From NCBI GenBank assembly GCA_016209725.1, contig JACQVO010000121.1, forward strand, positions 1 to 17,248: a stretch of DNA of 17,248 nt. The letters run 5' to 3'. The position numbers and the translations under genes were made by a program. Below are positions 3,214-17,248 of this stretch, piece after piece. Positions within the stretch are counted from its first letter, which is position 1. Every line of letters begins with the position of its first letter. The stretch comes from Candidatus Methylomirabilota bacterium. GTDB taxonomy: Bacteria; Methylomirabilota; Methylomirabilia; Methylomirabilales; 2-02-FULL-66-22. Under the pieces are notes generated by a model, which was not told the DNA's origin, ran no database searches, and saw nothing but the letters and a program-made list of their open reading frames with translations.

Positions 3214-3271
3214 CCCCCGGATCCCCGCCCAACCGCCAACAGAGCAGTGGGGATGGAAAGAAGTGAAAAGT

Positions 3272-3299
3272 GGGGACGTTGTTTCTGAAATTGACTTAT
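3272..3299 (+). repeat. 28-nt repeat, copy 1 (left inverted repeat of the transposase unit)
   Basis: Direct reading: ggggacgttgtttctgaaattgacttat. Confidence 0.9.
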
Positions 3300-3351
3300 T
3301 CCTCGCTGCCGTGCTAGCCTCTCGAGTTGATCTACAGTGGAGGCTCATCCC

Positions 3352-4323: not shown

Positions 4324-4347
4324 GTCAATTTCGGAAACAACGTCCCC
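4320..4347 (-). repeat. 28-nt repeat, copy 2 (right inverted repeat, inverted orientation)
   Basis: ataagtcaatttcggaaacaacgtcccc is the reverse complement of copy 1 with one mismatch. Confidence 0.9.
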
Positions 4348-4366
4348 TATCTTGTGGGATGGGCAG

Positions 4367-4894
4367 ATGGGTTCTGGCCAGGAACCGCCGCCGGCACTCA
4401 GGGAGTTCAAGCAGTTCCTCGAGTTCCTCCAGGGTCTGTGGGCCATGCTCGCCGGGGTCTCGGTCGTCTTCCCGCTGTCCAATACGCTCGCCCAGATCAT
4501 TCCGCTGGCCCAATGGACTGACGGCGGGTTTGCCTATCTGTCGCCTCCTGTGGTCACAGGCGTGACGACTCTCGCGTGTCTCTTCATCATCCTGTGGACC
4601 TTTGGGAAGCGCGAGGAGATGCGGAGCCACCGCACCTGGGACTCGCTTCCTCGGCAAGCAGGACGGTCCTTTGTGCTGGGGATAGCAGGGCTTGCCGTGT
4701 ACTTGGTGGGCCACTACACCGTGAAGGAGGATTTCTACTTCCGGGTGCTGGGATGGGGAAGCGACGATCTGCGGCGCATCGGCGGGGATCTGGTGTTATT
4801 GATGGCCTATGGCAGCTTCTTTGCCTTGGCGACGCGGGCCTTTCTTCTCCTGGGACTGCGGGAGTACTTGAGAGAGAGGGTTGAGGCCTCTTAG
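4367..4894 (+). CDS. Small integral membrane protein (about four predicted TM helices), function unknown
   Basis: Hydrophobic segments: LWAMLAGVSVVFPL, VVTGVTTLACLFIILWTF, SFVLGIAGLAVYLVGHY, LVLLMAYGSFFALATRAFLLLGL. The internal ATG at 4367 is chosen because the listed start at 4235 would overlap the transposase 3' end and the repeat. Third-codon positions are visibly less GC-biased than in neighbouring genes. Confidence 0.6.
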   Translation: MGSGQEPPPALREFKQFLEFLQGLWAMLAGVSVVFPLSNTLAQIIPLAQWTDGGFAYLSPPVVTGVTTLACLFIILWTFGKREEMRSHRTWDSLPRQAGRSFVLGIAGLAVYLVGHYTVKEDFYFRVLGWGSDDLRRIGGDLVLLMAYGSFFALATRAFLLLGLREYLRERVEAS

Positions 4895-4922
4895 GCTGCG
4901 GTGCGATCGGGGGCGCGATAGC

Positions 4923-4950
4923 GGGGACGTTGTTTCCGAAAATGACTCAT
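4923..4950 (+). repeat. 28-nt repeat, copy 3 (same orientation as copy 1)
   Basis: ggggacgttgtttccgaaaatgactcat has 3 mismatches to copy 1 and 2 mismatches to the reverse complement of copy 2. Confidence 0.85.
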
Positions 4951-5020
4951 GTCCCGCTGCCGTGCTGGCCGCGCGACGAGAATTTCAATGGAGGCCCGGC
5001 CGATGCCCTGCCAAGCGCGC
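4923..5020 (+). pseudogene. Decapitated second copy of the transposase unit (repeat, leader, SD, first about 6 codons only)
   Basis: After the 28-mer, the leader (cgctgccgtgct.gcc ... a.tggaggc.c..cc.ATGCCC..CAAGCGCGC) aligns collinearly with 3300-3369 of the intact copy. This includes the GGAGG and the start codon at 5003 (MPCQAR vs MPRQAR). Similarity ends at about 5020. Confidence 0.6.
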
Positions 5021-5125
5021 GGCCCATCAAGGGGCTGGAGCCGCGACGGCATCACCGTGCATGGGGGCCGGAGCCATCGCCTGGGGGAGGGCCCCTGCGC
5101 CGCAACATCGGCCGGGGCCAGAAAA

Positions 5126-5305
5126 CTACTCGTCCTCGATGAAGGACTTGAGCCGCTCGATCAACTCCGGTGTCACCTGGGTGATGCCGTGTTCCTTGGC
5201 GTGCTCCTGGGCGTTCTTCAGGACCTCTTCCACGGTGGCGCCGCGAACCGAGTGGGGACAGCCGCTCTGCGGGACGACCTTCTGGCAGTGAATGACCTTG
5301 CCCAT
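5126..5305 (-). CDS. DUF1059-family small protein
   Basis: MGKVIHCQKVVPQSGCPHSVRGATVEEVLKNAQEHAKEHGITQVTPELIERLKSFIEDE fits the DUF1059 pattern (C..x..C.h.v.g.t.eE....H....HG....tpEl). The internal ATG at 5305 is preceded by GAAGGAGGGG. The longer listed start at 5380 has no such signal. Confidence 0.7.
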   Translation of the reverse strand: MGKVIHCQKVVPQSGCPHSVRGATVEEVLKNAQEHAKEHGITQVTPELIERLKSFIEDE

Positions 5306-5405
5306 CGGACCCCTCCTTCTCAGGACGCCTGAGTCGAATTGTTGAGACAGTAAGGTATCCCCCTTGCTGGCGATCGTCAAGGCCGAGGTGGGGACGGACT
5401 CCGGC

Positions 5406-5433
5406 TTGACAGGCTCACGCCGCCCTTGATAAG
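5406..5433 (+). promoter_or_regulatory. Possible sigma70-type promoter for the epimerase gene
   Basis: Perfect TTGACA at 5406-5411, a 16-nt spacer, then GATAAG at 5428-5433. It lies in the divergent intergenic region about 60 nt upstream of the ATG at 5493. Motif match only. Confidence 0.25.
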
Positions 5434-5492
5434 GTCCAGGTCATCCCGCGTGTGCCGCACCGATTGAACAGACCAACAGCCCGGGTGGTCTG

Positions 5493-6320
5493 ATGTTTAC
5501 GCGCATCCACCATGTCGCCGTCGCGGTTCGCAGTATGGAGCAGGCGCTCCAGTTTTACCGCGATATGCTGGGCCTGCCTGTGGGGAAACGGGCCACGGTG
5601 GCGGACCAGGGGGTCCACGCGGCCCTGCTGCCCATGCAGGACGGCGAGATCGAGCTGTTGGAGCCGGCCGATCCGGCGGGGGGCGTGGCGCGCTTCCTGG
5701 AACGCAGGGGAGAAGGCCTCCACCACCTCTGCTTCGAGACCCCGGATGTCGCCGCCGCCCTGGCGTGGGCCAAATCCCTCGACCTGCCCCTGATCGACCA
5801 GGCGCCGCGCCCCGGCCTGGCTGGGATGATCGCCTTCCTGCACCCCAAGGCGAGCCACGGCGTTCTGGTGGAGATGGCCCAGCCGATCTCCCCGCCGAGC
5901 CACCCTAAAGCGGTGTCCGCCGGCATCGGTGCGGTGGGCTTCGAGACCGTGTACGTGGCGACCAAAGAGCTTGCCGGCGCGGCCGCCACGTTCGCCCGGA
6001 ACTTCCACGCCTCGGTGGGGACAGCCGGGGATGACCCCCACTTCGCCTCGAAGAACGTCGTGGTCTCGGTGGGGCACAGCCGGGTCACGTTGCTGGGTTC
6101 GACCGATCGCGTATCGCCAGTCGGGTGTTTCCTTGCGGACCGGGGCGAGGGATTGTTCGGCGTCTGCCTGCGGGTGGCGGATTTCACTGAGGCGGTCCGG
6201 TATCTGGAGGAGGCGGGCGTTCTGACCGAGATGCACGATCGGCACGCGACCAGGCCCCTGGCACGACTCGACCCCGCTCGGACCCACGGCGTCAACCTCT
6301 TCCTGTGCCCCCGCGCCTGA
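5493..6320 (+). CDS. mce: Methylmalonyl-CoA epimerase-like VOC (glyoxalase-fold) protein, double length (two VOC modules)
   Basis: The N-terminal half, IHHVAVAVRSMEQALQFY...GLP...QGVHAALLP...IELLEP...VARFLERRGEGLHHLCFETPD, matches the methylmalonyl-CoA epimerase pattern. The C-terminal half (VGFETVYVAT...GEGLFGVCLRVADF) looks like a second, diverged VOC module. Confidence 0.75.
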   Translation: MFTRIHHVAVAVRSMEQALQFYRDMLGLPVGKRATVADQGVHAALLPMQDGEIELLEPADPAGGVARFLERRGEGLHHLCFETPDVAAALAWAKSLDLPLIDQAPRPGLAGMIAFLHPKASHGVLVEMAQPISPPSHPKAVSAGIGAVGFETVYVATKELAGAAATFARNFHASVGTAGDDPHFASKNVVVSVGHSRVTLLGSTDRVSPVGCFLADRGEGLFGVCLRVADFTEAVRYLEEAGVLTEMHDRHATRPLARLDPARTHGVNLFLCPRA

Positions 6321-6456
6321 CGCATAACGCCCCGCACCTCCCCTGACGGATGCATCCGTCCCCGGGCGCGCCCTCCGCGGTCCGAGAGCCGGCGAGCATC
6401 CGCGCGGGACCCTGGTCTCCCGGATCCGTCACGTCCCAGCGCGGAAGGAGGTTGTC

Positions 6457-7569
6457 GTGGACACGCTGCTCCAGCAGATCCAGGCGTTCCTGTCGCTCCC
6501 CAGGGAGGCCCGGACGCGCCAAGGGCGCGAGGCGCTCCTCCAGGCCCTTGGGGTGCCCCAACCCTCCCGCTTCATCGAGGAGGTGTGGACCAGCCAGTGG
6601 GAGGCGGGGATCGATCGCCTGCTCGACCCCGCCAATACCCGGATCCGCCCCCTGGAGCCCACCGACTTTCACTTCAAGTGGGCCCTGGAAGCGTTCAACG
6701 GCCTGCCCGCCCCGGTCCGGGCGCGACTCTTCACCATGAAGATGGAGGCGAATGGTCTCCGGGGGCCGGTCCTGGCGCTGCTGGATGCGGCGGGCCTCTC
6801 CACGCACGCCTTCGAGGTTACGGATCTCGTGGCGCTTTCCAAGGTCCACGCCGAGGCGGCCGCCACCGTCCGCATCCACGACGGCCGCACCTGCCAGTGC
6901 GAGCTGTCTCACTTCGCCCCCGAGGCGGAGGCGCTGTACGCCGGCGCGGCGCGGCTTTTCCGCCTGCGCACCGCGACGACGTACATTCACCCCCTTCCGA
7001 CGGGCCGCCAGATCCTGCTGGAAGTCCCCTTGCACGGGATCCGTCTCGACGACGAGGACTTACCGCAAGAGGAGATGGGGCGCCTTTGGCCGTTGGCCAT
7101 CCGGGGTGTGGCGCGTCACGACGCGCTGGGCGACGTCCTGGGGACCATCCTGCGCGATCCGCACCACATCCTGACCGGGTCAGGCGAGGTCGTCTCGATT
7201 CACAACTACGAGCTGTTTCACGACATCGGCGGATTCCGCTTCGGGTTCGTCGAGCCGATCTTTCTCTCCCTGTGGCGGAGACTGCGCGGGCCGGATCGCG
7301 GCGAGGAGCGTGCCCCCCTCCGCCGGATGTTCGAGGAGTATCGCAGGGCCTATGTCGAGAAGCGGCAGGAGATTCAAGTACGCTGGAGCGAGCTGGAGGC
7401 GTATCTGACGGCGCACGGGCAGGCGATCCGGGAATACTTGAAGGGGCAGCAGGACTGGTCGGAAGTGGTGGCTGCCGTCCGGGAACGGGCATTCCGCGAT
7501 CCCGCCCAGTGGGTCCGGACGCTGTTGGAACCGTACCGGGAATCCTACCCGGACCTCCCCGAGGTTTGA
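6457..7569 (+). CDS. Hypothetical soluble protein, 370 aa, no family recognised
   Basis: GTG start at 6457 is preceded by GGAAGGAGG (6443-6451). Amino-acid composition is balanced, unlike the Arg/Pro/Gly-rich overlapping frames. No TM segments and no motif I can name. Confidence 0.6.
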   Translation: MDTLLQQIQAFLSLPREARTRQGREALLQALGVPQPSRFIEEVWTSQWEAGIDRLLDPANTRIRPLEPTDFHFKWALEAFNGLPAPVRARLFTMKMEANGLRGPVLALLDAAGLSTHAFEVTDLVALSKVHAEAAATVRIHDGRTCQCELSHFAPEAEALYAGAARLFRLRTATTYIHPLPTGRQILLEVPLHGIRLDDEDLPQEEMGRLWPLAIRGVARHDALGDVLGTILRDPHHILTGSGEVVSIHNYELFHDIGGFRFGFVEPIFLSLWRRLRGPDRGEERAPLRRMFEEYRRAYVEKRQEIQVRWSELEAYLTAHGQAIREYLKGQQDWSEVVAAVRERAFRDPAQWVRTLLEPYRESYPDLPEV

Positions 7570-7595
7570 TTCCAAATTGACGGCAAGCGGAGGAG

Positions 7596-8771
7596 TTACT
7601 GGCGGCCGGCGCGTTCCAGGATGGACACGATCACGACGATGATGGCGGCCTGGAGGATCAGGATCCCCGCGTCCAGGGGCCGGGCGTTCCGCAGTGCCAT
7701 GCCGGCCAGCCCCATGGAAATGCAGAGGGCGAATATCAGGAAGACGGTCTTCCGCCTGCTCCTCAGGAGAGTCTCCAGCCGGTGGTGCAGGTGGTCCTTC
7801 CCCACGTAGGCGATCCACTCCCGGAATGTCCGAACCTTTCCCGTCACGATCCTGGTTACCGTGATGTGGGTCATGTCGAAGATGAATATCCAGAAGATGA
7901 GCACGGGGGCCGCGATGTCCATGACGCTGCTCTCGGCCCATTCCCCCTTGATCGCCAGGGCAGCCAGCACAAAGCCCAGGAACGTGCTGCCGGTGTCCCC
8001 CAGGAAAATGGCGGCCGGACGCGTCGCCCGGAGGTTGAACGGCAGGAATCCCAGGCAGCTCCCCACGATGGCGGCCGCGAACCATCCCAGAAAGGGCTGG
8101 AAGGTCTGCGCCGCCACCAACCCCAGGAAACCCCCGGTGATGATGCTGAGACCGGTTGCCAGCCCGTCCATGCCGTCGAAGAAATTCATGGCATTGGTGA
8201 TGCCGAGGAGCCAGAGGATGGTCAGGGCCGCGTCTGCCACATTGCCGGCCACGGACCGCGGGAACAAAGTCAGCACCACGCCGGAGCCCATGACCCCGGC
8301 CGCCGCCAGGAGCTGCGTCACCAGCTTGAGCCAGGCCGGAGCGCCCCGGGCATCATCCACGATCCCGATCAGCACGAGCAGCGTTCCCCCCGCCATGATG
8401 GCCATGACCTGCTGATCCAGGATCGAGTTGGCCAGGATGGAGATCCCGAAGGCCGTATAGATGGCCAGGCCTCCGAGGAGGGGCGTCGGCTCCGTGTGGA
8501 CTTTTCGCGAGGCCGGGAAGTCGAGCACCTGCAGCAGGGAGGCGATGCGGATGACCAGGGGGGTGAACCCGAAGGAAATGAGTCCCGACACCACGAGAAT
8601 GTACAGCCAGCGGGCACCCGACATGTGCCACGTGGTCCGGACGCCGGGAAGCAAGAGAGCGCCCGCCAGCCCCAGGCTGAGGAGGCTGATCCACAGCGGG
8701 TACCGGGCGATGCCGCCTTGGGCGGGAACCGCGGGCGGCCCGATGGCCGCCCGGCTCCCCGACTGACTCAT
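7596..8771 (-). CDS. MraY/WecA-family polyprenyl-phosphate N-acetylhexosamine-1-phosphate transferase (initiating transferase)
   Basis: Multi-TM protein with NAMNFFDGMDGLA and IFLGDTGSTFLGF motifs. The start is trimmed to the ATG at 8771, which overlaps the upstream DegT stop as ATGA. The Arg/Pro-rich extension up to 9062 is out-of-frame reading of the DegT gene. Confidence 0.85.
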   Translation of the reverse strand: MSQSGSRAAIGPPAVPAQGGIARYPLWISLLSLGLAGALLLPGVRTTWHMSGARWLYILVVSGLISFGFTPLVIRIASLLQVLDFPASRKVHTEPTPLLGGLAIYTAFGISILANSILDQQVMAIMAGGTLLVLIGIVDDARGAPAWLKLVTQLLAAAGVMGSGVVLTLFPRSVAGNVADAALTILWLLGITNAMNFFDGMDGLATGLSIITGGFLGLVAAQTFQPFLGWFAAAIVGSCLGFLPFNLRATRPAAIFLGDTGSTFLGFVLAALAIKGEWAESSVMDIAAPVLIFWIFIFDMTHITVTRIVTGKVRTFREWIAYVGKDHLHHRLETLLRSRRKTVFLIFALCISMGLAGMALRNARPLDAGILILQAAIIVVIVSILERAGRQ

Positions 8772-9841
8772 CCCAGCACCCGCTGGAGGGCGCGGGTCAC
8801 CAGGGTCTCTTCCCGTGGCGTCAAGGCGGGATACACCGGCACGGACAGTCCATGGCGAAAGGCATGGGCGGCTCCGGGGAATCCGTCGAGTCCCAAGGTC
8901 AGGTGGAGGGGTCGGAAGACCGGGGGGCGGGCAGTGACACCCAATCCGGCCAGGCGGCGGGAGGCCGCCGTGGCCGCCGTGGGCACGCCGATGACGAAGC
9001 GGTGATAGACGTGGCTGCGTCCGGCGCCGGACGGAGGGAGGGTGATGGGCAGGTCTGCCCATTGGCGGCGGTAGCGTGCGGCGATGGCCGCCCGGCGGGA
9101 CAGCATGGCGGGCAGCCGGCGCAACTGGCTCCGGCCCAGCGCCGCCTGGAAGTCCGTGAGCTTGTAGTTGAACCGCATCCGGTGCTGCCGGCGTTCGTCG
9201 TACTCCCGCCGGTCCCGCATGCGAGCCACGAGGCGCGGGTCGCGACTGAGCAGCATCCCCCCTTCGCCGGTCGTCAGCAATTTGGTCGCGTAGAACGAGA
9301 CGATGCTGGCGCTTCCGAAGGCACCGACGGGCCGTCCTCGATACCGGGCGCCGAAGGCCTGGGCGCAGTCCTCGATCAGGGGAATGCCGAGGGCGAGGAG
9401 ACCCTCCAGATCCGCGGGGAGACCGAACTGGTGGGGAACGATGACGGCGCGGGTCCGCCGCGTGAGCCGCCGCCGGACGTCGGCGGGATCCAGGTTATAG
9501 GTGGCCGGGTCCACATCCGCCAGACGGGCAGTGGCCCCGACGTACTGCACGGCGTGCAAGGGGGCCACGCAGACATAGCTCGGCAGGATCACCTCATCGC
9601 CCGGACCGATGCCCAATCCCAGGAGGGCCAGGTGCAGGGCGGCGGTTCCCGAGCTGACCGCCAGGCCGGGCGGGAGCCCCAAGCACTCGCCAACCTCGGC
9701 CTCGAAACCGGCCACCTCGGCCCCCTGCGCCAGGGCCCCGCTTGCGACCACGCGGGCCACGGCCCGCACGTCGGCGGCAGTGATCCAGGGGCGAGAGTGC
9801 GGAACACACTCAGGCGACTTGGCAGTCCGGCGATCTGGCAA
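8768..9841 (-). CDS. DegT/DnrJ/EryC1/StrS-family PLP-dependent sugar aminotransferase
   Basis: HSRPWIT..., SSGTAALHLAL, PSYVCVAPLHAV, DCAQAFGA, SFYATKLLTTGEGGML (PLP lysine context). The only in-frame start is the TTG at 9841, which lies inside an octamer-repeat block, so the start is uncertain. Confidence 0.8.
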   Translation of the reverse strand: MPDRRTAKSPECVPHSRPWITAADVRAVARVVASGALAQGAEVAGFEAEVGECLGLPPGLAVSSGTAALHLALLGLGIGPGDEVILPSYVCVAPLHAVQYVGATARLADVDPATYNLDPADVRRRLTRRTRAVIVPHQFGLPADLEGLLALGIPLIEDCAQAFGARYRGRPVGAFGSASIVSFYATKLLTTGEGGMLLSRDPRLVARMRDRREYDERRQHRMRFNYKLTDFQAALGRSQLRRLPAMLSRRAAIAARYRRQWADLPITLPPSGAGRSHVYHRFVIGVPTAATAASRRLAGLGVTARPPVFRPLHLTLGLDGFPGAAHAFRHGLSVPVYPALTPREETLVTRALQRVLG

Positions 9842-9850
9842 TCGGGGATC
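9811..9850. repeat. Block of about 5 degenerate tandem octamers (caggcgac ttggcagt ccggcgat ctggcaat cggggatc)
   Basis: 8-nt periodicity read directly from the sequence. Same unit family as 9856-9919 but phase-shifted. Overlaps the first 10 codons of the DegT ORF. Confidence 0.6.
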
Positions 9851-9855
9851 CTTTC

Positions 9856-9919
9856 TAGGCGGTCAGGCAGTCAGGCAATCGGGCACCCAGGCAATCGGGC
9901 AACTCGGCGGTCAGGCGAT
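9856..9919. repeat. Array of 8 tandem octamers, consensus about CAGGCAAT / CGGGCAMC (left arm of the four-helix-bundle cassette)
   Basis: taggcggt caggcagt caggcaat cgggcacc caggcaat cgggcaac tcggcggt caggcgat, read directly from the sequence. Confidence 0.85.
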
Positions 9920-9990
9920 TCGTTCCACACCTCATCCGCAAGCATCTCGGCCAGTCGGTAGATTCGCAGACCCTTAAGACCCTCGGCCAT
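9871..9990 (-). pseudogene. Truncated four-helix-bundle (23S rRNA intervening-sequence protein / Avd-like) gene, N-terminal about 25 codons only
   Basis: ATG at 9990 is preceded by GGGAGGGAG. MAEGLKGLRIYRLAEMLADEVWNE resembles the N-terminal helix of a four-helix-bundle subfamily (..L.vYqLaeeLaDeiW..). The frame then runs into the octamer array (SPDRRVARLPGCPIA) and stops. Confidence 0.45.
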
Positions 9991-10027
9991 TTCCGCTCCC
10001 TCCCATGGATTTTCTTGTCTCCCCCCT

Positions 10028-10067
10028 GATTGCCCGAGTGCCAGAGTGCCCGATTGCCGGTTGCCAG
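10028..10067. repeat. Array of 5 tandem octamers (gattgccc gagtgcca gagtgccc gattgccg gttgccag), inverted relative to 9856-9919 (right arm)
   Basis: The reverse complement of these units (gggcaatc etc.) matches the left-arm units. For example, ccggcaatcgggcac vs caggcaatcgggcac is 14/15. Confidence 0.8.
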
Positions 10068-10070
10068 CCT

Positions 10071-10691
10071 TCAGGGATTGATATTGATGAACAACCGGAG
10101 GGGGATGAAGCCTTCGGCGTTGCGGACGCGGCCCTGGATTCCCCGGAAATGGGCCGAAGACCGGGCGATGTCCAGGATGGACAGTCCCTCGATATTGGTC
10201 TTGCCAACCTGGGAGCCGTGGGCCTGGAGGGTGGCGATCTTGTCTTCCAGGACACTGTCCACGTCCACGAAGACGGAGGGGGAGAAGTTCTGGGTGGTGG
10301 GTCCCTCGTAGAACAGGACGTTTCGCGTGTACCGGGTGGCGGTGATCGTGGAGGTGGCCAGGTGGCGGTGATCCTGGTGGGTGTCGTCGTGATAGTGGAC
10401 GAAGATGAAGTCCGGCTGTGCCTCGTGGATCACGCGCTCGACGCGCTGGATGATTTCGCGGTCCAGGGGGATGGCGGTATCGGGGTATCCCCCCCAGAAC
10501 AGCTTGGAGGCCCGGAGGATTTGGGCAGACTCCTCCTGCTCCCGCCGCCGGATGGCGCCGTCGCCGCCGCCGCTCCCGTCGGTCATCAGCAGCAGGAAGA
10601 CCTGGTGTCCCTGCCGGGCATACTTGATCAGGCTTCCTCCGCAACCGATTTCGATATCGTCCGGGTGGGCGCCGATGGCCAGGATGCGCAT
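10071..10691 (-). CDS. PIG-L/LmbE-family N-acetylglucosaminyl deacetylase
   Basis: MRILAIGAHPDDIEIGCGGSLIKY... is the canonical AHPDD.E.G.GG motif, and HQDH lies downstream. SD GAGAGGTGA precedes the ATG at 10691. Confidence 0.85.
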   Translation of the reverse strand: MRILAIGAHPDDIEIGCGGSLIKYARQGHQVFLLLMTDGSGGGDGAIRRREQEESAQILRASKLFWGGYPDTAIPLDREIIQRVERVIHEAQPDFIFVHYHDDTHQDHRHLATSTITATRYTRNVLFYEGPTTQNFSPSVFVDVDSVLEDKIATLQAHGSQVGKTNIEGLSILDIARSSAHFRGIQGRVRNAEGFIPLRLFININP

Positions 10692-10702
10692 AGGTCACCT
10701 CT

Positions 10703-10734
10703 CTCACGCAGAGACGCAGAAGCGCAGAGGAGAA
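10703..10734. repeat. Arm of the GxxExxY cassette containing 3 tandem octamers (cgcagaga cgcagaag cgcagagg)
   Basis: ctcacgcagagacgcagaagcgcagaggagaa. It matches the reverse complement of 11182-11210 at 24/27 positions ungapped, with the first 15 identical. Confidence 0.85.
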
Positions 10735-10785
10735 CTACGGCCTATTCCCAATACGACGGACACCATCCCTGATGATCAGTGCACC
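10735..10785 (-). pseudogene. Vestigial 3' end (last 16 codons plus stop) of a second, diverged GxxExxY gene
   Basis: The minus strand reads GALIIRDGVRRIGNRP*, against GAPVIKDGIRRIVNRL* in the intact gene 65 nt away. By hand alignment, 38/51 nt are identical to 10800-10850. Confidence 0.55.
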
Positions 10786-10799
10786 ACAGCCGAGCAAAA

Positions 10800-11177
10800 C
10801 TACAGCCTATTCACAATACGGCGGATGCCGTCCTTGATGACTGGCGCCCCAAAGTTGATGAGGGGGCCCAGTCTGTAGTCGAGCAGGCGAAGGTAGGTCA
10901 GGAGCTGCTTTGAGTGAACGCGGGAAAGCTCCTCCACGGATTTCAGCTCGACGACGACGCAGTGTTCTACGATCAAGTCTGCTCGAAACCCCTCCTCAAA
11001 GCGGATTCCCTCGAACTCGATGGGAACAGGCTTCTGACGCTCGACCTTCAGACCTCGCCTCCCCAACTCATGAGCCAAAACCACCTCGTAGACGGACTCA
11101 AGCAATCCCGGCCCGAGTGTGCGGTGGATGTGAAAGGCCGCATCCACGATCGTGCCTGAGATTGAATTGAGATCCAT
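10800..11177 (-). CDS. GxxExxY protein (PD-(D/E)XK nuclease-fold, PDDEXK_3-like)
   Basis: GPGLLESVY is the GxxExxY signature. FRADLIVEHCVVVELKSVE is a D...E.K nuclease-like core. Size about 125 aa. The ATG at 11177 overlaps the WbqC TGA by one nt (TGATG). A GTG at 11180 is an alternative start. Confidence 0.85.
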   Translation of the reverse strand: MDLNSISGTIVDAAFHIHRTLGPGLLESVYEVVLAHELGRRGLKVERQKPVPIEFEGIRFEEGFRADLIVEHCVVVELKSVEELSRVHSKQLLTYLRLLDYRLGPLINFGAPVIKDGIRRIVNRL

Positions 11178-11920
11178 CACCTTCTCTGCGTCTCCGCGTC
11201 TCTGCGTGAGACGTCAACGTGGCATTCGAGCGGCGACCAGGAGCGCCCCGATCGGATGATCGGCAGGCTCTCCGGGCCGCAATTGAGGAGCAAATCTATC
11301 ACTGCCAGGGTGGAAACGAAAGGCGGATATCGCTGGGGGTACTCGGGATGCCGGTAGGCCTGGACCTGGATGGCAATGCCTGCCTGGCTGAAGCGGCTGA
11401 CGTCCATGTAGGATGGGCCGGTCGGACCGGCGAGATACGTGGTGCCGCCCACCGCGCGGCAGAGGTCGATCAGGCGTCCGGTGGGGTCCTCCTGCGCCTG
11501 CAGGCTGGAGGCCAGGATACGGGGGGTTGTGATGCCCAGGTGCTGGCAGAGCACGTCCGTGACGGCGACGTTCAGCTCGCTCAGGCGGGCCCAGGGCCGC
11601 TCCAGCAGGGCCTGGAGGGCCGGCCCGAGGGGATCCCAAAACGGTGCCCGGCCGTAGTGCAGGCGGAGGGCCTGGCAGTGTTTGCGCTGCCAGTCCGTCC
11701 GGGGATTGATCTCCACCCGGTCAATCCGTTCGGGAAAGCGGTCGATGATGGGCACGGTCAACCATTGCCAGCCGTCCTTGGTGCGAATGCGGTTGCGGTT
11801 CTGCCACTCGTGCTTCGTGAACTGGACCGTGTCCAGGAGGATGAAGACATCGGCCGAGTCCAGCTTGTCGAAGTACCCCAGCCAGGGAAGGTAGTGCGGT
11901 TGATGGATGGCGACCTTCAC
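11177..11920 (-). CDS. WbqC-like family protein (polysaccharide-locus protein of unknown reaction)
   Basis: MKVAIHQPHYLPWLGYFDKL...FILLDTVQF...WQNRNRI matches the WbqC-like family N-terminus. GTG start at 11920 overlaps the upstream stop (GTGA). The last about 11 codons (SRRDAETQRR*) are encoded by the cassette arm. Confidence 0.8.
   Translation of the reverse strand: MKVAIHQPHYLPWLGYFDKLDSADVFILLDTVQFTKHEWQNRNRIRTKDGWQWLTVPIIDRFPERIDRVEINPRTDWQRKHCQALRLHYGRAPFWDPLGPALQALLERPWARLSELNVAVTDVLCQHLGITTPRILASSLQAQEDPTGRLIDLCRAVGGTTYLAGPTGPSYMDVSRFSQAGIAIQVQAYRHPEYPQRYPPFVSTLAVIDLLLNCGPESLPIIRSGRSWSPLECHVDVSRRDAETQRR
11182..11210. repeat. Arm of the GxxExxY cassette containing 3 tandem octamers (tctctgcg tctccgcg tctctgcg), inverted relative to 10703-10734
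   Basis: ttctctgcgtctccgcgtctctgcgtgag, read directly from the sequence. Confidence 0.85.
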
Positions 11921-13476
11921 GGGCTGCCTCCGCGCCCCGTCCTGACAAAGATCGGGTTGCTCAGGATCTGGTGCCCGCCCGGACCGCGGACCTCCAGGCG
12001 ATAGAACAGACTGGTCTCCGCCGGGAGGTCGGATTCACTCCATTGGAGGGTGACGGGGGTCTCCCCGCGCCCCGAGTGGACCACGCTGCCGTTCCGCACC
12101 AGGAGCGTCTGGATCCCGATCCGCCGTTCCCCCGTGGCACGGATCACGGCGCGCACCTCGGGCCTGTCGCCGGCACGCAGCGCCAGCCGATCGCCCGCCT
12201 CGGCGGCGGGGTGGTCGGGGAGAATCACCTGGAACTGGTCGAGGGCCAGGCCAATCTCCGGGGTGCGCTGCAGGGCATAGAAGCGTCCCTTGCGCAGGGC
12301 TTCGAGAAGCGCGGCCGGGTCCTTGCGGTCCACCAGGAAGACCGTTTGGACGTCGCCGAATCGCTTGCCCGCCTGCCCTTCGCGATGGTAGGCCGCCTCG
12401 CCGATCGCCCAGGCAGGAACAGCCCGACGGCCACTGAGATAATCGGCCAGGAGCCGGTCCCACCCCCCGCCGGGCTGGGTGAACGTCGTGGTGTCCTCGT
12501 AGACGCCGCCGAAGGCGGTGAACCGATCCGTCCGGAGGAGATCGGACGGGTAGGGATCGGTGTGGATCGTCGCCTGCATCCGTGCCACGGTGACCAATTG
12601 GTGATCCCGCGCCTCGGGCATGGACCAGACCGCCAGGCCGCCCCGCGCGGCGACGAAATCAATCACCGCCTGGTGCGGCCGCAGCCCCGCCTCCGAATCA
12701 TACGGGGAGACCGGGGGCGTGCGAAAGGGAAAGTTGTTCGCCAGCAGGGCTGCCCCGATCGTCAGGCAGAGGACGCCGCAGCCTGTGAACCGGCGCTCCA
12801 CGGTGAACTTGACGTGCTGGAGGCGAACGAGTCGCCTGCGCCGAACCCGGAGCAGCCACACCCCCGGCACCGCCAGTGTGACGGGGGAGAGGAGCCACAG
12901 GCTTCCAAGACCCCAATGGGCGGCGTTGGCGTTTCCGACGACGGGGAGGTCCCGGTAATCCTCGGGCCGATTCAGGCCGAGGACCAGGATGTTCTTCTGC
13001 CCGTTATACATCGTCAGCGTGCCCTGGAACAGGTTGCCCGTCCAATAATAGTGCGGGATCACCTCCGCGCCGGGAATGAGGACCACATCCTGCTGGCGGG
13101 CATTGGCGGCCCGGACTGCATCCAGGAACGGTTCGGGTCCCTGGCTCATGAGCGAGGGGTATTCCACCCGGTAGCGCAGGAGGTTCCGGAGAGGGGGCAG
13201 CCCGTATTCAAAGCGCTGCAGGTGATTCTCGGTCAGGAAGATGGCATCGACCCCCACGACGCGCGCACGGGCCACCAGTCCGTCGAGGGTGAAATCGCCG
13301 GAGCTCCACGTGGTGTGCGCGTGCACGACGGCGGGGATCGGGCGCAGGGGGCCGGCAGCGTGAAGCGGTGTGGCCGCCAGCATGACCAGACCCATCGCCA
13401 GCCCCAGATATGCGACTCTCCGTCCGGTCCGGCGTCCTAACCCCCATTCGAAATTCCTTGGCGACCTTGGCGTCAT
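11917..13476 (-). CDS. Membrane-anchored PHP-domain-like metal-dependent phosphoesterase (tentative)
   Basis: N-terminal signal/anchor (RRTGRRVAYLGLAMGLVMLAATPLHA). VVHAHTTWSSGDFTLDGLVARARVVGVDAIFLTENH resembles the PHP H.H...S.D motif block. Internal hydrophobic segments near LGSLWLLSPVTLAVPGVWLL and CGVLCLTIGAALL. No clear SD, so the start is uncertain. Confidence 0.5.
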   Translation of the reverse strand: MTPRSPRNFEWGLGRRTGRRVAYLGLAMGLVMLAATPLHAAGPLRPIPAVVHAHTTWSSGDFTLDGLVARARVVGVDAIFLTENHLQRFEYGLPPLRNLLRYRVEYPSLMSQGPEPFLDAVRAANARQQDVVLIPGAEVIPHYYWTGNLFQGTLTMYNGQKNILVLGLNRPEDYRDLPVVGNANAAHWGLGSLWLLSPVTLAVPGVWLLRVRRRRLVRLQHVKFTVERRFTGCGVLCLTIGAALLANNFPFRTPPVSPYDSEAGLRPHQAVIDFVAARGGLAVWSMPEARDHQLVTVARMQATIHTDPYPSDLLRTDRFTAFGGVYEDTTTFTQPGGGWDRLLADYLSGRRAVPAWAIGEAAYHREGQAGKRFGDVQTVFLVDRKDPAALLEALRKGRFYALQRTPEIGLALDQFQVILPDHPAAEAGDRLALRAGDRPEVRAVIRATGERRIGIQTLLVRNGSVVHSGRGETPVTLQWSESDLPAETSLFYRLEVRGPGGHQILSNPIFVRTGRGGSP

Positions 13477-13516
13477 GGCGGTTCAAGTGTTTTTTCGGAT
13501 CAGGGCTAACAGCGGG

Positions 13517-14653
13517 CTACCTGGAGCGGCCATCGGCCGTCACCTCTCGGTACACCTTGGCCAGGGCATCCAACATGGCCTGGGCGCTGTAGCGCGGGGC
13601 GCGGCGGCGTCCCGCCTCTCCCAGGGCGGCGGCCCGGGCCGGATCCTGAAGCAACGTGCCGATGGCCTCGGCCAGGGCCGCCGAATCGCGGGCCGGCACC
13701 AGCAGTCCCGCCTCCCCGTCGCCCAGGAGTTCGGCCACCCCGCCCACCCGCGTGGCCACGATCGGCTTTCCCAGGGCCATGGCCATGACCAGGACCCTCC
13801 CCATGCCCTCGTTGAGGGACGGAAGCGCCACGATATCCATTCCGGCCATGATCGAGGGAACGTCCTCGCGGAAGCCGGCGAAGGTGATCCGATCCCCAAG
13901 ACGGAGCGCGCCCGCCTGCGCCTCGAGCGCCGCCCGCGTCTCGCCGTCACCGACCAGGAGGAACCGGGCCTCGGGGCATCGTTGAAGAATCTGCGGAACG
14001 GCGTCGATCAGATAGTTGAGACCTTTGATCGGGGTGAGGCGTGCGATGACGCCGATCACCGGCCCCCCCGATACCAGGCGCACCGGCATGGCGGCCTGGA
14101 CGCCGTCGAGGTCCACCCCGCTGGGGATCGTCACGAACTGCTCCGGACGTCCGATCCCGTGCCGCAGGTGATCGCGCGCCTCCGCGTCGCTGAGCGTGAT
14201 GATGCGGTCCGTGAAGCGGGCCGCCACCCGTTCCAGCGCCAGGAAGACGCGGGTCGTGACCGGGGAGAAGTAGCCCTCGAAGATGTGGCCGTGCGGAGTA
14301 TGCAGGATGTGGGGGACCCCCGCAGCCCGGGCGGCGACGCGGCCCAGGAAGCCGGCCTTGGAGGAGTGGGTGTGGACGATGTCGGGCGGCACCCGGCGGA
14401 GGACCCGCCGCAACTGCCAGAGGGCCCGGCAGTCCGCCACCGGACTCACGAGGCGGCGGAGGTGCGGCACCTGGATCCACGCCACGCCGGCCCGCGAGAG
14501 GGTCTCGGAGAGTCCCGGCGGAGGATCCGCCGTCGCCCCCGACACGATGCTCCCGGTGAACTCCGCCCCGGGCATCCGGGTCGCGGAGATCACGGTGTTC
14601 TCCGTGGATCCCCCCACGTCCAGGCGGGTGATGATGTGGACGATACGGACCAC
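13517..14653 (-). CDS. Glycosyltransferase family 4 (GT-B, Glycos_transf_1)
   Basis: VVRIVHIITRLDVGG N-terminus, HTHSSKAGFLG, and LVGDG......FAGF.....PSLNEGMGRVLVMAMALGKPIVATRVGGVAELL (E-x7-E region). The start is trimmed to the GTG at 14653, 2 nt after the methyltransferase stop. The longer listed ORF up to 15454 is an out-of-frame extension. Confidence 0.85.
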   Translation of the reverse strand: MVRIVHIITRLDVGGSTENTVISATRMPGAEFTGSIVSGATADPPPGLSETLSRAGVAWIQVPHLRRLVSPVADCRALWQLRRVLRRVPPDIVHTHSSKAGFLGRVAARAAGVPHILHTPHGHIFEGYFSPVTTRVFLALERVAARFTDRIITLSDAEARDHLRHGIGRPEQFVTIPSGVDLDGVQAAMPVRLVSGGPVIGVIARLTPIKGLNYLIDAVPQILQRCPEARFLLVGDGETRAALEAQAGALRLGDRITFAGFREDVPSIMAGMDIVALPSLNEGMGRVLVMAMALGKPIVATRVGGVAELLGDGEAGLLVPARDSAALAEAIGTLLQDPARAAALGEAGRRRAPRYSAQAMLDALAKVYREVTADGRSR

Positions 14654-14655
14654 GC

Positions 14656-15594
14656 TCAGCCTCTGCTCTCCGGTTCGGCGAATGCCAGCAGGGATGGGGC
14701 ACACAGGAGATGGCCGGCCGTGAGGGCCGCGACGGTGCCCGCCAAGGTTCGTCCCACGGCGGTGAGGCCCGCCAGCCCCAGACGCGTGACGCCCCCGCGC
14801 GGGGAGAGCCAATCGGCCCCGCTGATCGGGGCGTTGTGGATGTGGACGAGCCCGAAGCCAGCCGTCCTCAGCAGGCAAGCCAGGGCACGGGCGTTCAAGT
14901 TGAACGGGTGGAAGATCACCAGGGCATGCAGGCGGTGCGCCAGTCGGGACGGGGTATGCCGGATCATCTCCCAGACAGCACGGTGAAAGGCCCCGTTGGG
15001 GATCCGAACCACCAGGAGCCCTTTCGCCCCAAGAACTCTGCGCACGGCTCCCAGCAAGGCGACCGGATTCGGCGCCTGGTCGAGGACGTTGATCAGGGTG
15101 ACCACATCGAATGCCCCTTCGGGCAAGTCGGCGTCCTCCAACGGCACGGCCTTCACCTTCAGGCCGTAGCGGGCCTGGGCCACACGGCAGGCTTCGATGC
15201 AGGGATCCACGCCGGCGATATCCCAGCCGATGGTACGGGCCATGGCCAGCAGGTGGCCCGCGCCGCAACCCACGTCCAGCCAGCGGCCGGGGGGCCGTCG
15301 GGGAATTCTTCCGAGAAGGCTGCGGAGCATGTCCAGGCGCTGCGCGCTGGCCTCCGACGCGCCGAAGTGCCCGAAGTAACGGTTCCGGTAGAAGGCCTCC
15401 TGCTCGACGGGGTCGGGCTGGGGGCTGGCGACATCGGCACCGCATCCCCGGCAATGGGCGAAAAACGCAGCGTCCACGCTGAAGCCACGGGCCAGATCAA
15501 CCCCGGCTCCGCACAGGGGGCAAGGGTCTGGCGGGACACCGGGGGCATCGTGTGGGGGCACGCTGACGGATCCAACCAAGGGTTTACCAAACAT
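14656..15594 (-). CDS. Class I SAM-dependent methyltransferase with N-terminal Cys4 zinc-ribbon-like motif
   Basis: CPLCG...(21 aa)...CRGCG, then LDVGCGAGHLL (SAM motif I) and FDVVTLINVLDQAPNP. Start set at the ATG at 15594 (MFGKPLVG). An alternative GTG at 15708 cannot be excluded. Confidence 0.75.
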   Translation of the reverse strand: MFGKPLVGSVSVPPHDAPGVPPDPCPLCGAGVDLARGFSVDAAFFAHCRGCGADVASPQPDPVEQEAFYRNRYFGHFGASEASAQRLDMLRSLLGRIPRRPPGRWLDVGCGAGHLLAMARTIGWDIAGVDPCIEACRVAQARYGLKVKAVPLEDADLPEGAFDVVTLINVLDQAPNPVALLGAVRRVLGAKGLLVVRIPNGAFHRAVWEMIRHTPSRLAHRLHALVIFHPFNLNARALACLLRTAGFGLVHIHNAPISGADWLSPRGGVTRLGLAGLTAVGRTLAGTVAALTAGHLLCAPSLLAFAEPESRG

Positions 15595-15805
15595 GCTGAC
15601 GCCATCGGTGCGCCCGTCGCATCCCCGCCGGGCGGTGGGCGGCCATCCGCATCGTCCTGGTCTGTGGCAGACGGATCGCGCTGCCCAGACCGTTGCCAGC
15701 TTCCCCACGCGGGAGCCGGACCGGGGGCCTTTGGGGGGGCTCCCCCGTCCCTCGCTTGTCCGTGGGGAAGGTGGCGCGGGTAATGATGTGGATCACGCGG
15801 ATCAT
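15584..15805 (-). pseudogene. Possible relic of a glycosyltransferase 5' end (73-codon ORF, only the first about 10 codons GT-like)
   Basis: The ATG at 15805 overlaps the upstream GT4 stop as ATGA. MIRVIHIITR parallels VVRIVHIITR at the start of the GT4 gene at 14653. The remainder is Arg/Pro-rich and unrecognisable, and it ends 11 nt inside the methyltransferase start. Confidence 0.3.
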
Positions 15806-17067
15806 GGGGTCAGACCTGCCGCTCTGGGCAGCGGCGCTGCAACCCGCGCTAGGTCCCTCAGAACAGCTTCAAGGCGGTCGATCGACATGTCCCAGGTGTA
15901 GTGAGTCTCCGCGTGTAGGCGGCACGCTTGCCGAAGGTGCAGACCTGGCGCCAGGTCAGGACTCCTTGATTCGAAAAAGTGGCGGAGGCCTTCGGCCATG
16001 GCCTCGGCTGTGGCGTCACGGAAGAGGAGCGAGGGGTCCAGGGGACCCAAGATTTCCGGTGTCGCCCCAACGGGAGTCCCGAGGATGGGGGTGCCGCAGG
16101 CCAGCGCCTCCACCGTGATCAGACCGAATCCCTCGAGTTGGCGGGTGGGCAACACGAAGACGTCTGCCGCTTGACAATAGAGAGGCAAATGCGCCTCGGA
16201 GACATATCCCAGGAACCGCACGTGGCCCTGGAGGTCCAGGGAGGCGCTGAGCGATTCCAGTTCGTTTCGGAGAGAGCCCGAACCCCCGATCAGGAGCAGA
16301 AACTCCGGGACATGCCGGCGCAGGATATCCAGGGCCCGGAGCAGATTATCCAGGCCCATCCGCGACTCGAGATTCCGCACCGTCAGGAGCAGGGACGATC
16401 CCACTGGGAGACCGAGCATCCTGCGTATTGCGTGGCGATCCCCCGCAGGCTGGAATCGTTCAGGGTCCACGCCGCCTGCAATCTTGATTATCCGGTCCGA
16501 CGGGATGCTGCGGTACAGCCCCCAGAGCTGATCAGCGGAGAAGCGGCTCAGGACGTGGATGCGCGTCGCCCGCTTCAGGCACGCCCTCTCGATGGCCCAG
16601 AGCATGAGCTGGATGGCCCGGCCGATGGGACCGGAGCGATGGTAGGGCGTCATCCCGGTGCGGCACATGTACTCCATCGGAGCGGGAGAGAGGAAGGTGT
16701 AGAGGCATGGAAGATCCCTGGCCGGATGCGATCGCAAGGCGCCAAAGCCGGAAAACGGCTGGTACAGGTGCAAGATGTCGGCGCCTTCTTCCGCCAGGAG
16801 CCGGGTGACACTTCGGCTAGCCTGGAGGATGGAGCTGAGGCAGAAGCGGAGTGGGGAGCGACGATCCACTGGAAAATGGCTGATCGGGACCCCTTCCCGT
16901 TCGACCGCATAGGTTACCCCATCCCCAGGAGAGCGGCTGAGGATGCGGATCCGGTGGCCGCGCTTGACCAGTCGGGAGGACTGCTCCCACAGAACCCGCT
17001 CCCCGCCGCCCGCGATGGCAAGGGGCGAGACATCGGAGATCATGAGGACGCGGAGGGCAGGGGTCAT
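15802..17067 (-). CDS. Glycosyltransferase family 4 (GT-B, Glycos_transf_1)
   Basis: RVLMISDVSPLAIAGGGERV N-terminus, and LIGGSGSL...FLGYV...VFVLPTRQLEGFGLITVEALACGTPILGTPVGATPEIL. The ATG at 17067 is preceded by GAGGTGA. Confidence 0.85.
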   Translation of the reverse strand: MTPALRVLMISDVSPLAIAGGGERVLWEQSSRLVKRGHRIRILSRSPGDGVTYAVEREGVPISHFPVDRRSPLRFCLSSILQASRSVTRLLAEEGADILHLYQPFSGFGALRSHPARDLPCLYTFLSPAPMEYMCRTGMTPYHRSGPIGRAIQLMLWAIERACLKRATRIHVLSRFSADQLWGLYRSIPSDRIIKIAGGVDPERFQPAGDRHAIRRMLGLPVGSSLLLTVRNLESRMGLDNLLRALDILRRHVPEFLLLIGGSGSLRNELESLSASLDLQGHVRFLGYVSEAHLPLYCQAADVFVLPTRQLEGFGLITVEALACGTPILGTPVGATPEILGPLDPSLLFRDATAEAMAEGLRHFFESRSPDLAPGLHLRQACRLHAETHYTWDMSIDRLEAVLRDLARVAAPLPRAAGLTP

Positions 17068-17074
17068 CGGTGGC

Positions 17075-17248
17075 TCACCTCAGCGTCCAGGGTCCGCTCA
17101 TGTCCAGGTACTGGCGCATCCACAGCTCGGCCATCATGAGGGTCCACAGGCGATCGCTGTGGGATCGGATCCCGGCCAGGTGCTCCCGCTTCAGGCTCTC
17201 CACCGCCTCGGGGACGAACAGGCCTCGGGTCCGGACCCGCTCCGGGGA
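17075..17248 (-). CDS. C-terminal 57 codons of an asparagine synthase (glutamine-hydrolysing)-like amidotransferase; continues off the right edge
   Basis: Hand translation of the minus strand gives SPERVRTRGLFVPEAVESLKREHLAGIRSHSDRLWTLMMAELWMRQYLDMSGPWTLR*. The H..D.LW.L...ELW.R tail is characteristic of polysaccharide-locus AsnB-type proteins. It is too short to appear in the ORF track. Confidence 0.5.
   Translation of the reverse strand, partial: SPERVRTRGLFVPEAVESLKREHLAGIRSHSDRLWTLMMAELWMRQYLDMSGPWTLR

Follow-up and report, generated by a model that had tools for sequence, protein, structure and literature searches.

A GxxExxY gene between inverted octamer arms in a Methylomirabilota operon: an apparent member of a cross-phylum family of hairpin cassettes built like rRNA intervening sequences

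Some intervening sequences (IVSs) of bacterial 23S rRNA carry an open reading frame (ORF), e.g., those of Coxiella burnetii and Leptospira (PMC4990558; Ralph & McClelland 1993, cited therein). The IVS of Coxiella is 428–444 nt long; the inverted repeats at its ends pair into a 28-bp stem with an S23p ORF in the loop, two to three tandem heptamers (GACAGAT) stand immediately before the ATG, the AG-rich ribosome-binding region is removed by an RNase III cut in mid-stem, the GC content is low and the ORF is decaying (PMC4990558). Where rRNA IVSs come from and how they move are questions that have stood open since the early 1990s, and the hypotheses on them have been reviewed (PMC4990558). Inverted repeats around a gene are also known from the RAYT genes, which are flanked by their repetitive extragenic palindromes (REPs) in inverted orientation (PMC3116915, PMC3337134). 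Here we describe an element with features of both in a stretch of 17,248 nt from a Candidatus Methylomirabilota bacterium (assembly GCA_016209725.1, contig JACQVO010000121.1, positions 1 to 17,248 of the forward strand), which as a whole is referred to as the window. In a sugar-biosynthesis operon of this window a gene of the GxxExxY (PDDEXK_3) family lies between two inverted arms of tandem octamers, in the junction of the genes for WbqC and for a PIG-L/LmbE-family deacetylase. The feature is real and general, and it is a hairpin cassette with traits of both IVSs and REPs. We give a probability of roughly 60% to the reading that it belongs, as a single copy, to a large cross-phylum family of selfish gene cassettes that are bounded by hairpins and insert co-directionally between the genes of host operons.

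Judged from its sequence, the cassette is a promoterless GxxExxY gene between inverted arms, each composed of a TCACGC head and about three 8-nt units of the form R-R-A-G-N-C-G-C. The arms constitute a 31-nt inverted repeat (I1), 87% complementary and 448 nt apart, which has the best score at its spacing within the window (42 vs. 15 ± 3) and a duplex energy of −52.8 kcal/mol (−18.7 ± 3.7 kcal/mol in 1000 shuffles). An earlier note on this DNA, made without database searches, had reported that the arms match at 24 of 27 positions with the first 15 identical and that each consists of three tandem octamers. The match holds on direct reading of the sequence, and Tandem Repeats Finder returns period-8 arrays of 3.0 copies at 10706–10729 and of 3.1 copies at 11183–11207, the other period-8 arrays in the window being those at 9863–9902 and 10031–10058. 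When the minus-strand RNA from 10690 to 11225 is folded, as the same note had proposed, the arms are predicted to be paired in the minimum free energy (MFE) structure, which is far more stable than that of shuffled sequences (z = −6.3), and the gene is indeed poorer in GC than the operon (0.56–0.58 in the gene region vs. 0.65–0.72 in the neighbours). The gene was also rightly described as intact. However, it does not lie exactly between the WbqC stop and the Shine-Dalgarno sequence of PIG-L, as had been supposed: the WbqC frame crosses the whole 5′ arm, its last approximately 11 codons (tail ...SRRDAETQRR) are arm-encoded, and the frame ends in a TGA that overlaps with the GTG/ATG of the GxxExxY gene. 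For this gene the likely Shine-Dalgarno sequence (GAAGG) is contained in the inner end of the 5′ arm, and the Shine-Dalgarno sequence of PIG-L (GAGG, 10698–10701) follows directly after the 3′ arm.

The translated ORF matches PF13366 (PDDEXK_3) with E = 6.5e-41 and 139.8 bits (cut-off 22), which is its only Pfam match, and TIGR04256 (GxxExxY) with E = 5.8e-42 and 142.7 bits (cut-off 35). It contains G25-L-L-E28-S-V-Y31, D68, E78-L-K80 and Q92-L-L-T-Y96, and in 37 homologues the GxxExxY motif, the PD-(D/E)XK residues and QxxxY are either invariant or conserved to at least 90%. Purifying selection on the gene is strong, the ratio of nonsynonymous to synonymous substitution rates (dN/dS) against relatives being 0.07–0.15. 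A phmmer search of the PDB found no relative of the protein. The family comprises 20,447 clusters at 50% identity (E up to 1e-3), and many of its database entries are called with N-terminal extensions or as tandem fusions of about 280 aa.

The arrangement of the window recurs at almost every close relative of the gene. A protein-first scan of metagenomes yielded 80 loci with 60–93% aa identity, which together with the window and loci L001 and L003 gives 83 genes; TCACGC-headed period-8 arms stand beside 82 of these, the single exception having hardly any flank. Arm-gene-arm is the most frequent layout; in others there is a complete hairpin on each side of the gene, or there are strings of hairpins. 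The arm pair is clean in 61 of the 80 loci, and in most cassettes the arms lie within 0–20 nt of the ORF. Arms are likewise present at members with 45–55% identity from Sphingomonas, Bacteroides, Bernardetia, Gemmatirosa and one viral contig, so that comparable inverted octamer arms, which the earlier note had expected at other GxxExxY genes if its reading was correct, extend to distant members in four further phyla. For example, in Sphingomonas TTCACGCGAAGGCGCGAGGACGCGAAG is found before the ATG and the partner arm is translated as a C-terminal extension, in Bacteroides finegoldii the arm is TTCACCACAGAGGACGCAGAGGACACGGAG, and in Gemmatirosa the copy is frameshifted. Because arm-gene-arm recurs at almost every relative in many phyla, the unit appears to be a widespread, apparently undescribed selfish cassette, IVS-like in build.

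All seven annotated sites are co-directional and tight in operons, namely WbqC/PIG-L, GT4/AsnB, methyltransferase/restriction subunit, LeuS/SpoU, fabD/fabG, ade/manC and radA/FAD-protein. The mean GC content is 0.51 in the gene vs. 0.59 in the host flanks (46 loci). Universal 16S/23S rRNA motifs were found in none of 228 related loci. Phages were rejected as the vector, since among 2.9 million viral contigs there was one relative with the patterns used; a plasmid collection contained 4 protein matches and 3 hairpin matches only. Arms of the same family also enclose other cargo, namely a PIN/VapC-like 131-aa ORF (L063, 2093–3008), a 442-aa insertion sequence (IS) transposase (L094, 4823–6394) and a 131-aa ORF of unknown kind (L053, 1485–1957).

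The nearest homologues of the gene are from Candidatus Methylomirabilis / NC10. The cassette is present at the same WbqC/PIG-L junction in L001, L004–L008 and L215, and the 5′ arm of the window could be aligned with the arms of L001, L003, L004, L006 and L008. L003 has a gene of 92% identity, flanked by the same arms, between genes for a GT4 glycosyltransferase and an asparagine synthase (GT4/AsnB), at a different junction of the same cluster, and on L003's own contig (L209) the WbqC/PIG-L junction is empty. Empty junctions are also found in L210–L213, where WbqC has 233 aa vs. 242–255 aa (alignment A4). WbqC and PIG-L follow each other in the same order whether the cassette stands between them (L001, L004, L215) or not (L209, L211). 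In an alignment of the window, the orthologous loci and L003 at its different site (A1), homology begins and ends at the arms; the window's own GT4/methyltransferase junction showed no homology to the L003 site on alignment. Arms and gene travel as one unit, which some close relatives have, others lack and others have at a different place. The earlier note had named, as the mark of ordinary vertical inheritance, a gene kept without repeats at the same junction in all relatives; instead there are empty junctions, and there is the same cassette at other junctions.

In the next intergenic region of the window, between PIG-L and DegT, there is a second, decayed cassette (Table 1). Its two arrays are mutually inverted (I1/I2; 29–34 nt, 79–90% complementary) and paired in the MFE fold, and the gene remnant between them shares 15 of 18 aa with the N-terminus of the intact PF05635 gene (124 aa) that L004 has at this junction. 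An intact PF05635 gene is found at PIG-L/DegT in L004–L008 and L215, where it lies between inverted GGCAATTG-type octamer arrays. Because a stub of a gene for the 23S rRNA intervening sequence protein (IVP) and inverted octamer arrays occur together at this junction, the window contains two cassettes of like architecture, one live and the other decayed, and these encode both protein families that database annotation links to rRNA IVSs. With the anatomy of the Coxiella IVS and this decayed neighbour, the comparison drawn in the earlier note with the geometry of rRNA IVSs, here inside an mRNA operon, has proved apt. At the orthologous junction the unit of the IVP arms has changed from GGCAnnnn to GTCAnnnn, with compensation in every unit of both arms; the IVP cassettes thus keep pairing and period, and the sequence of their arms drifts rather than being conserved.

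The PIG-L/DegT junction is an insertion hot spot. In L211 (7017–8921) it carries fragments of the IVP gene together with an IS630-like element (DDE_3 and HTH ORFs). In L004 a lone array of approximately 8-nt units (ATTCCGCA ATCCACAT TCCGCATT CCGCATT; 4408–4470) is found between the 3′ arm of the orthologous cassette and PIG-L, which may be the remnant of a further cassette. The live cassette of the window has a scar as well: between the gene stop and the 3′ arm there is a relic that is 75% identical to 10789–10853 (direct repeat D1) and reads ...ALIIRDGVRRIGNRP before its stop, vs. ...APVIKDGIRRIVNRL in the GxxExxY gene. In alignment A1 this relic is a window-specific insertion, missing from the orthologous cassettes of L001 and L004, and it looks like a trace left by slippage or by recombination of two cassettes. 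A search of the window against Rfam gave no match at E up to 1, hence no rRNA match either.

Table 1. Coordinates of the two cassettes in the window and of the host genes next to the live one
Feature	Coordinates	Strand	Remarks
WbqC, upstream host gene	11177..11920	(-)	247 aa; PF08889, E 1.6e-74
5′ arm of GxxExxY cassette	11181..11211	(-)	TCTCACGC AGAGACGC GGAGACGC AGAGAAG = TCACGC head + three 8-nt units
GxxExxY / PDDEXK_3 gene, intact	10800..11180	(-)	126 aa; start GTG 11180 or ATG 11177, both overlapping the WbqC TGA
Relic, 65-nt diverged duplicate	10724..10788	(-)	last ~18 codons of GxxExxY gene + inner arm edge
3′ arm of GxxExxY cassette	10702..10732	(-)	sense strand CTCCTCTGCGCTTCTGCGTCTCTGCGTGAGA, GCGTGA head at end
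PIG-L/LmbE-family deacetylase, downstream host gene	10071..10691	(-)	206 aa; PF02585, E 3.7e-28
5′ arm of decayed cassette	10025..10058	(-)	8-nt units GGCAATCG/GGCACTCT; period 8, 3.5 copies (Tandem Repeats Finder)
23S_rRNA_IVP gene remnant (four-helix-bundle, S23p/Avd-like)	9916..9990	(-)	first ~25 codons, rest deleted; alignment A2
3′ arm array of decayed cassette	9858..9916	(-)	units CCTGACTG/CCCGATTG; 5.0 copies at 9863-9902 (Tandem Repeats Finder)

When the search is started from the arm instead of the protein, a different part of the family comes into view. A scan of one genome per species (596 Gb) with the probe CTCACGCRGAGACGCR gave at least 120 stretches. For the bare 16-mer about a thousand chance matches are expected in 596 Gb, and in most of the matches listed the array continues past the 16-mer. 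The matches listed are from Cyanobacteria, Gemmatimonadota, Verrucomicrobiota, Planctomycetota, Bacteroidota, Acidobacteriota, Chloroflexota and others, and include several contigs of single Longimicrobium metagenome-assembled genomes (MAGs). Among them 1 of 120 arm stretches encloses a GxxExxY gene (L024, from Cephaloticoccus, Verrucomicrobiota), and 28 of 42 paired arms are ORF-less hairpins of 53–94 nt with three units per arm; the loops of solo hairpins measure 4–15 nt. Between the window and L024 the arms are identical in 30 of 31 nt and the genes in 71% of their nt. The arms are more conserved than the ORF across phyla. Full cassettes are greatly outnumbered by gene-less hairpins of the same family, and some cassettes are partly deleted. 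The IVP relic of the window, the frameshifted Gemmatirosa copy and the solo hairpins can be arranged as a decay series.

The hairpins were compared with described elements. T- or A-runs are found beside just 9 of 40 solo hairpins, for which reason a reading as terminators was rejected, and the 3′ arm in the window is not followed by the T-run of an intrinsic terminator. In Rfam there is no family for these hairpins; at eight hairpin-rich loci they gave only sub-threshold matches to microRNA-precursor models, as generic long hairpins do. A match to Acido-Lenti-1 in L098 (4544–4589; 39.8 bits, gathering threshold 37 bits) is unrelated to the hairpins. In L217 a 150-aa Y1_Tnp (RAYT-like) gene lies amid a different, GGGGCAACGCCCC / GTCCCCTTCGGGGAC hairpin family (380–1500 and 4500–4700), and hairpins of this second family also stand downstream of the GxxExxY cassette of L217; the two repeat systems coexist and are distinct. 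A link of the octamer arms to RAYTs was rejected, because this sole Y1_Tnp gene seen has the different GGGGCAACGCCCC-type REPs around it.

The arms change in a regular manner. A position profile of 40 non-redundant arm pairs shows a unit R1-R2-A-G-N-C-G-C behind an invariant TCACGC head. At R2 the swaps between G-C and A-T are near-equal in number and 39 of the 40 pairs are paired, N is often unpaired, and at R1 there are 19 G.U vs. 6 A.C in the sense strand. In 30 arm pairs, chosen for pairing and phylogenetically related, 94.6% of the cells are paired vs. 87.7 ± 0.6% after shuffling, and cells with a double change number 80 vs. 32.5 ± 8.2, a value as high being reached in 0 of 500 shuffles; controls in slid registers have 31–59% of the cells paired. 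Columns 8/49, 16/41 and 24/33 are split into about 15 A-U and 14 G-C. The two arms thus co-vary so as to remain complementary. The unit type (GGAG, AGAG, AAAG or AACG) tracks the tree of the GxxExxY proteins. Host GC was considered as its cause and rejected, since hosts of the GGAG, AGAG and AAAG classes have a similar mean GC. Because every unit of both arms changes together and with compensation, the arms evolve in concert.

L217 contains a solo hairpin of the same family (2918–2987) inside the ORF of an N6_N4 DNA methyltransferase, in which it is translated in-frame (...LTQSRRDAEKTPELDLRDSAAPRE...). L077 contains three near-identical hairpins of which the 5′ arm is AGAG-type and the 3′ arm CGTTGCG-type; these arms pair only at the TCACGC/GCGTGA head, and the hairpins may be chimeras from recombination between hairpin subfamilies. 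L229 (1501–1531; Nostoc sp. PCC 7120 plasmid alpha, 188394–188424) has, in this model cyanobacterium, a lone intergenic arm, CTCACGCAGAGACGCAGAGACGCGGAGAG, with no partner nearby. It should also be noted that neighbouring ORFs are often extended, because the arms are without stop codons in most frames.

How could such a cassette live and spread? At the level of RNA, the arms would form a stem of about 28 bp on the operon transcript and would loop out the ORF, as in the ORF-bearing IVSs of 23S rRNA. This stem would be a substrate of RNase III and would hide the cassette's own ribosome-binding site, which would make the insert tolerable in essential operons. Pairing in the sense strand followed by an RNase III cut would explain not only this tolerance, but also the strict co-orientation and the tolerance of G.U at R1. 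A plain RNase III stem is nevertheless inadequate. Since RNase III is blind to sequence, it cannot explain why head and core are invariant, which suggests that they are the recognition site of a specific factor, and since the arms are better conserved than the gene and mostly occur without an ORF, the recognition is probably sequence-specific and possibly takes place at the level of DNA. At that level the conserved arm sequence would be the cis-site for the spread and the maintenance of the cassette. The only constant companion of the arms is the encoded PD-(D/E)XK nuclease, and it is most likely this nuclease that would recognise the arm sequence. The concerted change of the units might reflect recognition of each unit by a protein, or formation of a DNA hairpin or cruciform with mismatch correction in shifted registers. 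Solo hairpins would be deletion derivatives or non-autonomous copies.

Several observations weigh against this reading. Looping-out and cleavage by RNase III are predicted from the fold; yet the antisense strand of the arms pairs equally well (−53.4 vs. −52.8 kcal/mol for the sense strand), over all arm positions G.U is in weak excess over A.C (49 vs. 33), and the pairs used for the co-variation counts were a selected and related set. The AlphaFold model of the GxxExxY protein has a mean confidence (pLDDT) of 73 and Foldseek gave no match in the PDB at E < 1, an outcome that speaks neither for nor against; the assignment as a nuclease is that of Pfam and of the motifs. IVP cassettes share the architecture and yet encode a non-nuclease, for which reason the encoded protein need not be a mobility enzyme. 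No direct target-site duplication was seen: the bases just outside the heads are complementary (GC/GC, TGGT/ACCA, AGGT/ACCT), and beyond the head the stem runs on for 2–4 bp in which the complementary bases vary; the divergence between filled and empty junctions is too great for an insertion footprint to be defined. Finally, the synonymous divergence (dS) of the cassette is 0.32–1.23; in the same pairs of genomes WbqC and PIG-L have similar or somewhat higher values, and because the cassette is so close to its flanking genes in this respect, inheritance within Methylomirabilis has been mostly vertical. In this lineage the cassette appears as an old, selected, mostly vertical resident of the polysaccharide cluster of Methylomirabilis that is occasionally lost or relocated. 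The best reading is that of an IVS-type hairpin cassette that has spread horizontally.

The selfish-cassette reading can be carried further, although to this extension we would give distinctly less than an even chance. GxxExxY proteins would then be the sequence-specific nucleases of an unrecognised class of mobile elements. They would recognise TCACGC-headed octamer hairpins, as a nuclease counterpart of RAYT/REPIN or as a hairpin-homing element, they would seed gene-less hairpins across phyla, and their cassettes would be the free-living source of the ORF-bearing 23S IVSs. The 8-nt units would be sites for the subunits of an oligomer, about three for the nuclease and four to five for the pentameric protein of the S23p/Avd type that the sister cassette encodes.

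Of the other explanations, the most probable, although unlikely in itself, is that the hairpin of about 65 nt is primary. It would be REP/REPIN-like, host-maintained or self-propagating (an mRNA stabiliser, an insulator or a structural element), GxxExxY genes would lodge by preference in or between such hairpins or serve them in trans, in the manner of RAYT transposases and REPINs, and the long-range pairing would be incidental. That so few of the arm stretches listed enclose the gene (1 of 120) and that so many of the paired arms are ORF-less (28 of 42) speaks for this explanation; the partly deleted cassettes, however, show a route by which a cassette becomes a solo hairpin. In some loci (L217, L186, L188, L201) the gene has a complete hairpin on either side or a string of hairpins next to it, and the arms can enclose other cargo (the PIN/VapC-like gene and the IS transposase), which agrees with genes lodging in hairpins; but in most cassettes the arms are 0–20 nt from the ORF and the unit type follows the protein tree, as fits co-inheritance as one unit. 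The hairpin that is translated in-frame in a methyltransferase gene is likewise in keeping with a primary hairpin, and the flanking of RAYT genes by inverted REPs (PMC3116915, PMC3337134) offers a precedent. On the other side, families of REPs are lineage-specific whereas the arm sequence is common to many phyla, and the GxxExxY protein is no Y1 transposase, the real Y1_Tnp protein in L217 having different REPs.

We see a small chance that everything happens at the level of RNA, the arms being nothing but an RNase III stem, the GxxExxY protein an unrelated cargo with a cellular or defence function, and the spread a passive one by recombination and horizontal transfer. In favour of this, the geometry equals that of the Coxiella IVS, the Shine-Dalgarno sequence and the start codon are at the inner end of the stem, and the cassettes are co-directional at 7 of 7 operon sites; lone arms and hairpins are, however, also found outside any obvious transcript context. 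G.U is tolerated at R1 in the sense strand and the IVP cassettes retain pairing and period despite the drift of their sequence, which fits this reading as well. Against it, TCACGC, CGC and G are invariant in 30–40 independent arm pairs although RNase III has no need of a particular sequence, the arms are 97% identical across phyla where the gene is 71% identical, and every unit of both arms changes in concert.

That the gene is an ordinary, vertically inherited accessory gene, with an inverted repeat that arose by chance or that represents two intrinsic terminators or an attC site of the integron type, is hardly credible. In its favour, the dS of the cassette is near that of its neighbours in several comparisons and T-runs follow a few of the solo hairpins (L098, L090). 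Against it, the repeat is far beyond chance and recurs in 82 of 83 relatives, there are empty junctions and alternative sites, and a T- or A-run accompanies only 9 of 40 solo hairpins. Cassettes lie in essential operons, e.g., fabD-fabG, in which a terminator would do harm. Among the window ORFs scanned there was none with an integrase domain, and the arm sequence, read directly, has no attC cores (GTTRRRY/RYYYAAC).

The finding bears on two very large protein families of unknown function, GxxExxY/PDDEXK_3 and S23p, the "23S rRNA IVS protein". Both are found in the same type of hairpin cassette, with arms of 7–8-nt units that are conserved or co-vary across phyla, and in ordinary operons, which provides a concrete cis-element against which the proteins can be tested. 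It also provides a model for the origin of IVSs, namely a cassette landing in an rRNA helix, and it may explain a class of hairpin repeats that is common to several phyla. Should the stems be processed, then the inserts would also cut the mRNAs of operons such as fabD-fabG, and this would be a new layer of operon regulation. The arms should furthermore be thought of in genome annotation, because they lengthen adjacent ORFs (e.g., the tail of WbqC and the N-terminally extended calls) and can be translated in-frame.

From transposons that have terminal inverted repeats (TIRs) and from miniature inverted-repeat transposable elements (MITEs) the cassette of the window differs in that it is without a direct target-site duplication. 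It shares with integron cassettes a small promoterless ORF with imperfect palindromes that is expressed by transcription from the host or the platform, and some GxxExxY genes lie between two hairpins. However, R/L core sites and a cassette array are absent, as is an integrase among the window ORFs scanned; the sequence of the hairpin is conserved and not its structure alone, and the cassettes stand singly inside housekeeping operons. Rickettsia palindromic elements (RPEs), said to have been described by Ogata and colleagues in 2000, reportedly insert in-frame into genes, as do other MITE-like palindromes. In this they are matched by arms that are mostly free of stops, by the hairpin in the methyltransferase of L217 and by the arm-encoded tail of WbqC; RPEs differ in that they are not known to carry an ORF, to occur outside one genus or to have an octamer periodicity. 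The REP/REPIN-RAYT systems have in common with our family that most copies are dispersed palindromes without a gene, that inverted repeats flank the associated gene (82 of 83 genes here, and 1 of 120 arm stretches among the matches listed), that the repeats cluster in strings and that the type of repeat matches the clade of the protein. The differences are that the cassette protein is of the PD-(D/E)XK type, with PF13366 as its only match, rather than an IS200-like Y1 (HUH) transposase, that RAYTs are typically single-copy whereas the cassettes occupy seven operon junctions, counted across organisms and not per genome, and that the repeat of the cassettes is common to several phyla and made of tandem octamers.

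In the literature examined, the papers on IVSs cover the stem-loop with an ORF and the heptamers of Coxiella, and not cassettes in operons, arms conserved across phyla or a link to GxxExxY; those that name GxxExxY (three) or PF13366 (two) contain nothing about flanking repeats, and the arm strings occur in no relevant paper. The earlier note had known of no description of octamer-array arms for this gene family. For GxxExxY genes no such account was found, as stated there, but the design of the arm is not wholly without description, since tandem short repeats in the arm of an IVS have been published. From the IVSs of 23S rRNA the cassette of the window differs in its place, a protein-coding operon (WbqC/PIG-L) rather than rRNA helix 9, 25 or 45; in its ORF, a PF13366 PD-(D/E)XK nuclease rather than S23p / PF05635; and in its arms, which are octamer arrays on both sides with a TCACGC head conserved across phyla, the upstream host gene being translated through one of them. 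Its excision by RNase III is a prediction from thermodynamics. There are also likenesses: both have a size of about 430–510 nt and a long terminal stem with the ORF in the loop (the arms of the window measure 31 nt), both have tandem short repeats before the ATG and an AG-rich ribosome-binding site in the stem, in both the GC content is below that of the host, the occurrence is sporadic and the ORF is prone to decay, and the decayed cassette next to the one in the window has an ORF of the same family (PF05635) as the classic IVS. Because the anatomy of the Coxiella 23S IVS so nearly describes the cassette, our reading of the feature in the window is that a cassette of the IVS type has come to lie in an mRNA operon.

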